From: Dictyostelium discoideum | Taxonomy: Eukaryota | DNA: 64,000 bases | Assembly: GCA_000004695.1 (NCBI GenBank) | Contig: CM000153.2 | Coordinates: 5,056,001 to 5,120,000, forward strand | Direction of reading: 5' to 3' | In this document: piece by piece, positions 14,335 through 17,388 of the stretch | How the letters are laid out: each line of letters opens with the position of its first letter | Numbering within the stretch: position 1 is the first letter of the stretch | Program-made: the position numbers and the translations under genes | The notes under the pieces: generated by a model | Database searches by the model: none | What the model saw: only the letters and a program-made list of their open reading frames with translations | What the model was told of the DNA's origin: nothing

Positions 14335-14772
14335 ATGATAACAGAATTTGAAAAATTATTTTGGAAGGTTTTTAAAAATAAATATTTAATAGGTTTAATA
14401 TTTGAAAATGTAAAATGTATGAAATTATCATTTTTAGATGATAATAAATTTTATTTGGGTAATAGAATACTATTTAGATTTATAAGATCACTTTCATGGA
14501 TTACAAAAAAGAGACAATGGCCTCTATTAAAAGATAAATTATTAAGTAATGAATTCATTATAATAAAGAGATCAGGTATTTGTAGATTTTTAAAATATTG
14601 TAAAGATATTGATAATGATGAAGAAATCATTAAATTATTATATGAAAAAAAAAAAGATCAATTAAGTCAAGTTGATTTAATATCAGAATCAGTTAATAAT
14701 AATAATTTAAAAGCATTAAAAATTTTTACAAAACAATTTAATCAAAAAACTAATCATGAACCAATGGATTAA
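14335..14772 (+). CDS. Hypothetical protein, the N-terminal part of an interrupted ORF. It stops at TAA 14770-14772, but the frame stays open into the next feature.
   Basis: The ORF is MITEFEKLFWKVFKNKYLIGLIFENV.... Its N-terminal motif is shared with the FNIP-repeat genes at 18.5 kb and 60.6 kb. Confidence 0.45.
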   Translation: MITEFEKLFWKVFKNKYLIGLIFENVKCMKLSFLDDNKFYLGNRILFRFIRSLSWITKKRQWPLLKDKLLSNEFIIIKRSGICRFLKYCKDIDNDEEIIKLLYEKKKDQLSQVDLISESVNNNNLKALKIFTKQFNQKTNHEPMD

Positions 14773-15096
14773 ATCATTAGTGAATTATCAGTTAAATATA
14801 GTCAGGATGGTATTAAAATATTAGAATTCTTAATAAATGAAAGAAGTGAAGGTTGTTCAAAAGATCTTGATATATTTTCAATTGTAAATAATATTGAATT
14901 CCTTGAATATCTTTCAGATAGTATTAATAAAATTTTTAAATCCAACAATAATAATAATAATAATAATAATAATAATAATAATAATAATAATAATAATAAT
15001 AATATTAATAATAATAATAATAATAATAATAATAATAATAATAATAATAATAATAATAATAATAATAATAATAAAAATAATAATGATTTTAAATTA

Positions 15097-17388
15097 ATGA
15101 GATTTAGTAAATTTATTATGATTTCAAATTTATGTTCAGAAGAATTACAGATGAAATTAATTGATAGAAAATTAATAGAATGTGAAGATTTAAAAATGAT
15201 AAATGACTTAATTTCATATAATTTCAAAATTTTAAATAATTTTAATGAATTTAAAATGTTACCGAATTCATTTTTTCATTATTTCGAAAGTTATTATTGT
15301 GGTGATGGTGGTAATAGTAGAAAACAGCTTTATAAACATTGTGCAATTTCTTATTGTTTATTTAAAAGATACCTAGAATTTGATAGTAGTGATGAAAGAA
15401 ATAAATTTTCATTTAATATAGTTGAATTCTTTGAAATTGCAATTAATTCATACTCTTTAAGTACTTTTTGGAATTTTGATTTTAGAAAATTAAATTTAAC
15501 TTTACAGGAGAAATATGAAATTTTAAATATTTTTATAAATTTTAAAGTCGATAATTCAAATCCATTGGAAAAGAAATTAAATAATTTGGAAAAAATAATA
15601 AATGTATTATATCCTTTTCAAGTTGTAGAATCACCACTACCTCAAATTGAAGAAGTTTATAAATTCTATAATTATTTAAAATCAAATTATAATGTTAATA
15701 ATTTAATTAAAATAATTCAAAGTTATTATCATTTGAATATAATTAAAGATGGAAATTTAAATTTATTAAATTCATTTTTAAATATATTTAAAGATGAAAT
15801 TAAAGATTCCAATTTCTTTTTTGAAAATGATAAACTTTTAATAAATCAAGATTATTTTATTAATTGTAAGGATAATAGTAATAAAGTTTTATTATTTTTA
15901 GATAGATTATTAGAAATTAAAGAATTTATAAATAGTGATATAATATATTCAAAATCATTCCTTCAATCATTAAAATTATCATTATTTCCAATTAGTAAAG
16001 AGGATTTTTTAAATTCATTATTAAAATTAAAACAACACTTTAAATTAACTCAATCATTACCACCATCACCATCTTTATCAATTAAATTTAATTATTTTAG
16101 TGATTTAATATTTAATTTATTAATTGATAATATCAATGATAAATTATTTATAAGAATGATAATAGAATCATTTATAAATTATTTACATAATGATATGGTT
16201 ATTCAAATTTTAGATAAATTAGTTGAAATTGATTTTGAATCATTTTCTTTAATATTAAATTCTTTGGGTAATGATTATAAGATTAATGAATCATTATTAA
16301 AATATAAAATTAAAGTAAATTCTTCAATTAAAATTTTAATTTCATCATTAAAATGGTATAAATATTTAGATTTTACATATTTAATTGAAGATTTAATTAT
16401 AAATTCAAATGACGGTGGTAGTGATGATGATGGTTCAAGTGAAATTAAATTAGATTTACAATTAATTGAAGAAATAATAAATTTACAAATTAATAATGAA
16501 ATGTATCAATCTAAACCAATATCGGATTTGGTAGTTGATCAGTCATTAAACTTTATGAATGATTTATTTGGTGGTGGTGATGATTTTAAATATATATCTT
16601 ATAATGCAACAAAGTTTGCATTAAATAAAAGAATGTTCAACTTATTAGAATTATTTTATAAACCAAAATATAAAAAATCATTCCATTGGGATGAGGAATT
16701 ATTTTCTTATCCTCCAATTTTACCAAACCCAACCTCATTTCAACAAGATAAACCACAACAACTACAACCATATCAACAAAATCAAAAGATTGAAAAAGAA
16801 GAGAAAGAAATAAAAAAACTAAATAATGCACAAAAAACAAAAGAAATTAATATTAAATCAAAATCAAAAACTAATACTGAATTAAATAATGAATTAAAAC
16901 AAATTCAAAGTTATTATTTTATTGATGATTCAATTATGTTATTGGAATTGGGTGAAGTAAGAGATGCTCTTTTCTATTTTAAGAAATATGGTAAAAATGA
17001 TTTGAAAAGTTTAAGTACAATCAACCTAAAAAAGATAATCAAAGCCTATGAAATGGAAATTGTGGCCCAATATATTTCTTTGTACCTCTCATATTTTGGA
17101 AGAACTGTTACAACTGACCTATTATACTATTCATTAAAAAAGGGCAGAATTGATGTTTACCAATTCCTTTACAATTATAATTCCAACTTTAAAATGATTG
17201 ATCAATATTTTTATACGAATCTAGCTAAAAGAGGTGACATACCAATGATTAAATTTCTATTATCTCAAGATACATTCACTAATTTATCAAATAATAGAAA
17301 AAATGAAATAATTAATCAACTTTTAACAATAGCCATTGAATTGGGTAATAATAGTCTTTTAAATTGGTTAAACACTCTACCCTCATGA
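15097..17388 (+). CDS. Hypothetical Asn/Ile/Leu-rich protein of 763 aa. It is in the same frame as 14335..14772 and is probably the continuation of that gene.
   Basis: Intact ORF. The 324 nt upstream (14773..15096), including a run of about 45 AAT codons, are open in the same frame. Confidence 0.45.
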   Translation: MRFSKFIMISNLCSEELQMKLIDRKLIECEDLKMINDLISYNFKILNNFNEFKMLPNSFFHYFESYYCGDGGNSRKQLYKHCAISYCLFKRYLEFDSSDERNKFSFNIVEFFEIAINSYSLSTFWNFDFRKLNLTLQEKYEILNIFINFKVDNSNPLEKKLNNLEKIINVLYPFQVVESPLPQIEEVYKFYNYLKSNYNVNNLIKIIQSYYHLNIIKDGNLNLLNSFLNIFKDEIKDSNFFFENDKLLINQDYFINCKDNSNKVLLFLDRLLEIKEFINSDIIYSKSFLQSLKLSLFPISKEDFLNSLLKLKQHFKLTQSLPPSPSLSIKFNYFSDLIFNLLIDNINDKLFIRMIIESFINYLHNDMVIQILDKLVEIDFESFSLILNSLGNDYKINESLLKYKIKVNSSIKILISSLKWYKYLDFTYLIEDLIINSNDGGSDDDGSSEIKLDLQLIEEIINLQINNEMYQSKPISDLVVDQSLNFMNDLFGGGDDFKYISYNATKFALNKRMFNLLELFYKPKYKKSFHWDEELFSYPPILPNPTSFQQDKPQQLQPYQQNQKIEKEEKEIKKLNNAQKTKEINIKSKSKTNTELNNELKQIQSYYFIDDSIMLLELGEVRDALFYFKKYGKNDLKSLSTINLKKIIKAYEMEIVAQYISLYLSYFGRTVTTDLLYYSLKKGRIDVYQFLYNYNSNFKMIDQYFYTNLAKRGDIPMIKFLLSQDTFTNLSNNRKNEIINQLLTIAIELGNNSLLNWLNTLPS

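Follow-up and report, generated by a model that had tools for sequence, protein, structure and literature searches.

A probable young nonsense allele of a divergent ankyrin-like gene in the laboratory lineage of Dictyostelium discoideum

INTRODUCTION

When a long open reading frame (ORF) is interrupted by one stop codon, is it two genes, one spliced gene, a misread base or one broken gene? The question is raised by positions 14335–17388 of a 64,000-nucleotide stretch of the Dictyostelium discoideum genome (assembly GCA_000004695.1, contig CM000153.2; the whole stretch is referred to here as the window), where ORFs 14335..14772 and 15097..17388 lie in one common frame on the forward strand. An earlier reading of this DNA, made from the letters alone (the sequence-only reading), had placed a recently inactivated pseudogene or strain-specific nonsense allele first among its explanations. 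We find that this ranking holds. The span is very probably a polymorphic pseudogene: a young null or truncation allele, specific to one lineage, of a single-exon gene. The stop codon is AAA in two syntenic D. discoideum orthologs, and one of these is an intact ORF of 985 codons.

RESULTS

One frame with a single internal stop

Translation of 14335–17388 (+) gives 1018 codons, 1016 of them sense codons, and the only stops are TAA at 14770–14772 and the terminal TGA at 17386–17388. A recount revealed no others, confirming the claim of exactly one in-frame TAA. The remaining five frames of the same interval contain 52–229 stops each. A frame check of the 324 nucleotides (nt) that separate the two ORFs (14773–15096) likewise bears out their description as a stop-free gap within one frame: there are zero stops and zero in-frame ATG codons, and the interval consists of 57 non-repeat codons, a 47-codon tract containing 45 Asn and the residues DFKL. 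At the base composition of the window, which has a G+C content of 23%, the probability of a stop at any random codon is p = 0.091, and 56 consecutive open codons would occur with P ~0.005, in agreement with the earlier statement that such a run is unlikely by chance. The G+C content of the non-repeat segment (14773–14943) is exon-like, at 0.19–0.23 versus 0.04–0.13 in the flanking intergenic DNA.

The stop is a lysine codon in two diverged isolates

A search with the joined frame, from which the poly-Asn tract had been removed, matched two proteins labelled D. discoideum, P0001 (985 amino acids, aa) and P0002 (922 aa), each with 100% query coverage. This search was word-indexed and saturated by low-complexity candidates, so that absences from it are weak evidence. 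The two corresponding loci (L001 and L002) are in synteny with the window, being flanked upstream by an eIF4G-like gene and downstream by an FNIP gene, the 155-aa pspE and a ThiF/E1 gene. In L001 the gene (8001–10958) is an uninterrupted ORF of 985 codons. A three-way DNA alignment shows a single difference at the stop codon, T at window position 14770 versus A in both L001 and L002 (AAA, Lys, to TAA), and the window lineage has no unique stop other than this TAA. The assertion that the whole span is one gene is supported by co-linearity with the genes of both isolates, of which that of L001 is uninterrupted. The window differs from these isolates by 2–5% throughout the region, and the divergence is therefore not special to this gene.

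The L002 gene (L002:8001–10938) is damaged in a different way. It carries three frameshifting deletions of 4, 11 and 2 bp, near window positions 14548, 16282 and 16970, and the deposited 922-aa P0002 model spans each of them with a predicted 'intron'. Three segments are absent from P0002 because the gene model bridges the three frameshifts in this way. In L002 the ortholog is probably a pseudogene of independent origin, annotated as though it were coding, and its separate frameshifts suggest that the gene is dispensable and prone to loss.

Outside the discoideum clade no positional ortholog was found; the full-length homologs that match best, those of D. firmibasis and D. citrinum, are non-syntenic.

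The stop is reproduced in a second assembly

An exact search with the PspE sequence identified a further record of the region, L003 (GCA_054883475.1, a 5.58-Mb chromosome-level record). L003:13658–16711 is the same as window 14335–17388 at all 3054 positions, including the TAA. Over 20.5 kb the two records differ by nine homopolymer or microsatellite length differences and five clustered bases, and they are therefore separate assemblies of essentially one strain. As an observation in its own right, the five clustered substitutions (three G>T and two A>T, at window 28983–29030) are the only base differences from L003 in the 20.5 kb; they could be a true variant of small extent, or one of the records could contain a local error of assembly or polishing.

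De novo Nanopore + Illumina assemblies of AX2-214 and of the diverged wild 'D. discoideum' isolates CR116C, OT3A, M4B and S6B were deposited in 2025 (Holland et al., PMC12745789). Most likely, L003 is AX2-214, and two of the wild isolates are the source of L001 and L002. On the window side, two neighboring gene products are identical to D. discoideum AX4 entries, DDB_G0286911 (5049–6551) and the prespore protein PspE (20584–21048, minus strand). AX2 and AX3/AX4 were derived separately from NC4, and the TAA, being shared by both records, is therefore probably older than the axenic strains.

In a protein collection that contains these AX4 neighbors, no protein is identical to the 145-aa or 763-aa ORF products, as would fit a locus with no coding sequence in the AX4 annotation; exact searches of a contig collection did not find the two products either. 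A literature search by the neighboring DDB_G identifiers found no papers.

Past constraint and age of the stop

The ratio of non-synonymous to synonymous divergence (dN/dS) is 0.32 for window versus L001, 0.39 for window versus L002 and 0.41 for L001 versus L002, with dS ~0.06. On the unrooted window branch there are 24 synonymous and 38 non-synonymous changes (omega ~0.34). Ratios of 0.32–0.41 indicate that purifying selection acted through most of the divergence. All six insertions or deletions that distinguish the window from L001, the 105-bp AAT expansion among them, are multiples of three.

Single-base changes in this gene create a stop in 7.1% of cases, and the 871 codons downstream of the TAA contain zero second stops and zero frameshifts. 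At this rate, the clean 871 codons imply fewer than ~40 neutral substitutions (less than ~1.3% divergence) since the TAA arose, at 95%. The mutation is probably recent.

A dictyostelid family with a predicted ankyrin-like fold

Neither ORF, nor P0001, has a match in Pfam, and no Pfam ankyrin match is seen at E <= 0.1; no sequence match in the PDB is found at E <= 1. The paralogs do show weak ankyrin matches, at exactly the residues of the conserved N-terminal domain, and one of them alone (P0010) just passes the Pfam gathering threshold (Ank_4, score 23.6 versus a cut-off of 22.7). A structural model of the N-terminal domain has an ankyrin-repeat-like fold of stacked helix-turn-helix repeats, with moderate confidence (predicted local distance difference test, pLDDT, 70.6). 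The protein thus resembles ankyrin-repeat proteins (Pfam clan CL0465) in its modeled fold but differs from them in having no Pfam ankyrin match and very divergent repeats. Fold model and family alignments together point to a gene for a very divergent, lineage-restricted, ankyrin-like protein.

An exhaustive HMMER search with P0001 (1.84 billion representatives) returned 24 matches at E <= 0.001. All those whose source was looked up are dictyostelid: D. firmibasis, D. citrinum, D. purpureum, D. dimigraforme, Tieghemostelium lacteum and D. cf. discoideum. The weak matches include at least two outside the family, a canonical ankyrin protein (P0028) and a long repeat protein (P0026). Full-length homologs are P0006 (947 aa, aligned at 6–814) and P0007 (945 aa, aligned at 42–934), the closest such homologs coming from D. 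firmibasis and D. citrinum. The homolog loci of these two species (L004:9001–11844 and L005:9001–11914) adjoin SIR2-ankyrin, ABC-transporter and ComC-like genes; given this different neighborhood, the window gene may be a discoideum-clade-specific copy.

Most other matches share only the N-terminal domain, over ~140–200 residues. Its family consensus is LFWKVFxNKYL ... GNRIxF ... SLxW ... LLKDKL ... LLYEKKKD ... VDLI ... ALKxF ... MDxAIxxGNIExLEYL ... EG[CYF]S, and the TAA sits within the '...MD-K-II...' stretch of this domain. The D. firmibasis homolog P0006 has K in the alignment column of the stop, and several phmmer alignments of P0001 to paralogs cross residue 146. A profile hidden Markov model (HMM) built from paralogs only matches the pre-stop ORF at profile positions 10–142 (E = 6.8e-50) and, in co-linear order, the 56 post-stop residues at positions 156–200 (E = 8.6e-6). 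Homology within the family therefore continues across the stop, which is predicted to truncate the protein inside its N-terminal repeat domain.

Short N-terminal-only family members of 73–212 aa are also seen (P0008, P0009, P0013, P0014, P0020, P0022, P0024, P0027 and P0034), and the short members include the AX4 protein DDB_G0269492, of 124 aa.

DISCUSSION

How the allele would have arisen, and what weighs against it

The sequence of events that we favor is simple. A single A-to-T transversion at position 14770 turned Lys146 (AAA) into TAA in the NC4-derived laboratory lineage. The change falls in the conserved N-terminal domain, and translation from the normal start would end after 145 residues. 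Of the remaining 871 codons, the first 108 offer no in-frame ATG, and for this reason the 871 codons are most likely untranslated; the full-length protein is probably not made. The locus shares with other polymorphic pseudogenes one disabling point mutation, an intact syntenic allele elsewhere, past purifying selection and no further decay; it differs in that the loss of product is predicted here from sequence and that the comparison spans three lineages only. So understood, the locus is nothing out of the ordinary, a young pseudogene or a truncation allele, and calls for no new mechanism.

Some points weigh against this interpretation. The clean downstream ORF fits continued expression of the downstream part equally well. 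The strain names, with L003 as AX2 and the window as AX4, are ones that we infer. In addition, the annotation pipeline applied to L003 got round the stop, with a 986-aa product over 3054 nt.

Alternatives

The laboratory lineage might still get something useful from the broken gene, either as a 145-residue, stand-alone ankyrin-like module, similar to the many short family members, together with a separately initiated 763-residue protein, or through a newly usable GC-AG intron at 14713–14805. We consider this improbable, and the two routes are weighed below.

A short intron that removes the TAA would leave a slightly shorter full-length protein. The sequence-only reading had held that no GT...AG intron can do this; that statement does not stand, as 53 frame-keeping GT...AG pairs of 114–597 nt span the stop, though homology speaks against their use. 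The most specific candidate comes from the deposited L003 gene model, which derives its 986-aa product from the identical 3054 nt, i.e. with 93 nt removed. The 93-nt GC...AG pair at 14713–14805 yields exactly 986 aa, and no other canonical single or double intron does so (there is no 93-nt GT...AG and no suitable pair of short introns). However, L001 has this stretch as exon within an intact ORF, and it encodes residues conserved across paralogs, which removal would delete. Its G+C content of 0.215 is exon-like when set against the 0.04–0.13 of flanking intergenic DNA. The acceptor CAG (14803–14805) is CAA in L001 and L002, so that the site is lineage-specific rather than conserved. The consensus splice donor of Dictyostelium is of the GTAAGT type, and the donors nearest the stop (GTTAAT, GTCAAG, GTTGAT and GCATTA) match it poorly. 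The 986-aa GC-AG product is absent from the protein collection, and the same annotation project bridged the three L002 frameshifts with such 'introns'. The 986-aa L003 model is most likely a pipeline artefact, and removal of the TAA by splicing is quite unlikely.

Equally doubtful is a gene fission under way, in which the 145-aa fragment and the 763-aa ORF are both expressed separately, with an internal start or reinitiation serving the ORF. In its favor, the downstream ORF has stayed clean, and annotation gives many members of the family as short proteins of 73–317 aa with the N-terminal domain only (e.g. DDB_G0269492); these may themselves be fragments of broken genes. Most of the interval between the two ORFs is conserved coding sequence, followed by the poly-Asn tract, and outside the AAT repeat it has no promoter-like or 3' untranslated region-like composition. 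In the orthologs a single ORF runs through the region. A further point against fission is that reinitiation in eukaryotes works poorly when a 145-codon ORF and a 324-nt gap come first.

A sequencing or assembly error in the source record, with A as the true base at 14770, could explain why the window departs from the orthologs by one base in an AT-rich region, and the sequence-only reading had listed it. We reject it as very unlikely: an independent assembly that differs from the window elsewhere (L003) has the same T, and base 14770 lies outside any homopolymer run.

Programmed stop-codon readthrough or recoding to give the full-length protein, an option that the sequence-only reading had entertained and that could draw on the open, conserved frame after the stop, finds no support and is barely credible, since the stop lacks conservation (the codon is AAA in both wild isolates, and the D. 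firmibasis homolog has K), its context (GAT TAA ATC) is TAA-A and not leaky, TAA followed by a purine being a generally efficient terminator in eukaryotes (a general rule, not a Dictyostelium measurement), and the downstream conservation is accounted for by the recency of the mutation.

Parts of the gene

We return to the reading as a nonsense allele of one gene, the parts of which are collected in Table 1. The poly-Asn tract holds 45 Asn in the laboratory lineage versus 12 in L001 and L002, and its expansion, being a multiple of three, is in frame. Most of the 763-codon ORF is homologous to P0006 and P0007, and residues 897–953 of P0001, at the C-terminal end, match the canonical ankyrin protein P0028 (E = 2.3e-4). 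This ORF belongs to the same gene as the segment before the stop and is no separate gene; a two-gene reading conflicts with the unbroken orthologous ORF and with the coding homology at 14773–14940.

Table 1. Features of the interrupted gene (window coordinates)
Feature	Position	Strand	Basis
Single-exon gene for a predicted dictyostelid-specific, divergent ankyrin-like protein	14335..17388	+	Full-length co-linearity with L001 and L002; dN/dS 0.32–0.41
Conserved N-terminal domain, 145 codons before the stop: LFWKVFKNKYL ... GNRILF ... SLSW ... WPLLKDKL ... LLYEKKKD ... VDLI ... ALKIF	14335..14769	+	
Premature TAA in place of Lys146; the orthologs read AAA, with A where the window has T14770	14770..14772	+	DNA alignment with L001 and L002
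57 sense codons after the stop (IISELSVKYSQDGIKILEFLINERSEGCSKDL...), continuation of the conserved domain	14773..14943	+	In-frame coding in L001 and L002; paralog-only profile
Poly-Asn tract, (AAT)n microsatellite, 45 Asn	14944..15084	+	Expanded by 105 bp versus wild isolates
763-codon ORF that starts at the first in-frame ATG downstream of the TAA and runs to TGA; body and C-terminal part of the same gene	15097..17388	+	Continuous with the upstream part in L001

Resemblance to FNIP-repeat genes and neighboring features

The sequence-only reading had also noted that the N-terminus carries the same motif as two FNIP-repeat genes of the window, at 18.7 kb and 60.6 kb. The motif is present as quoted: FNIP-repeat proteins (PF05725), these neighbors included, have in common with the window gene a short N-terminal helix motif, LF-x-K-[VI]-[FW]-x-N, and the string LF-x-K-V-[FW]-x-N is the hallmark of the ankyrin-like family described here. 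Unlike FNIP-repeat proteins, the window gene has no FNIP repeats, and the similarity is limited to ~10 residues. Neither ORF gives an FNIP match at E <= 1, versus E = 6.3e-66 for the neighbor at 18717–20483. The resemblance can be seen by eye, but as a link to the FNIP genes it is statistically marginal. The N-terminal motifs are not significantly similar in pairwise comparison (BLASTP E = 3.5). A profile of the family N-terminus finds the 60.6-kb ORF (60563–60856) at E = 0.013, the best non-self match among 1156 window ORFs, but does not match the 18.7-kb ORF at E <= 10. A search of the protein database with the N-terminal-domain profile returned no FNIP protein among its 6 matches; this search too was word-indexed and missed P0001, so that absences from it carry little weight. 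The family and the FNIP genes may have an N-terminal module in common.

The FNIP-type gene at 60.6 kb (60596–61951) is itself split into ORF pieces in different frames (60596–60859, 61182–61484 and 61715–61951), which could reflect introns or decay. Downstream of the interrupted gene, a short minus-strand ORF (17666–17992) has an unusually high G+C content (up to 0.46) and terminates in a repeat rich in Gly, Trp and Lys (...WKKWYSGGGGSGGKWDGGGSGGKWNGGGGSGGGSWKKWN); the annotations of L001 and L002 show no gene in the corresponding interval.

Implications

For annotation, the locus is best described as one gene with a K146 stop allele in NC4-derived laboratory strains, and neither as two genes nor as an intron-containing gene. 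Automated models in new Dictyostelium assemblies appear to bridge defects of this kind with introns that are not real (three of them in L002 and, it would seem, one in L003), and such intron-patched models can inflate the apparent protein-coding content and distort evolutionary analyses. The finding touches no open mechanistic question. Within the family, truncation or breakage may also account for the short N-terminal-only members; decay would then seem to be frequent. The AX2 and AX4 strains in use probably carry a naturally arisen null or truncated form of an ankyrin-like gene of which at least one wild isolate has an intact copy.

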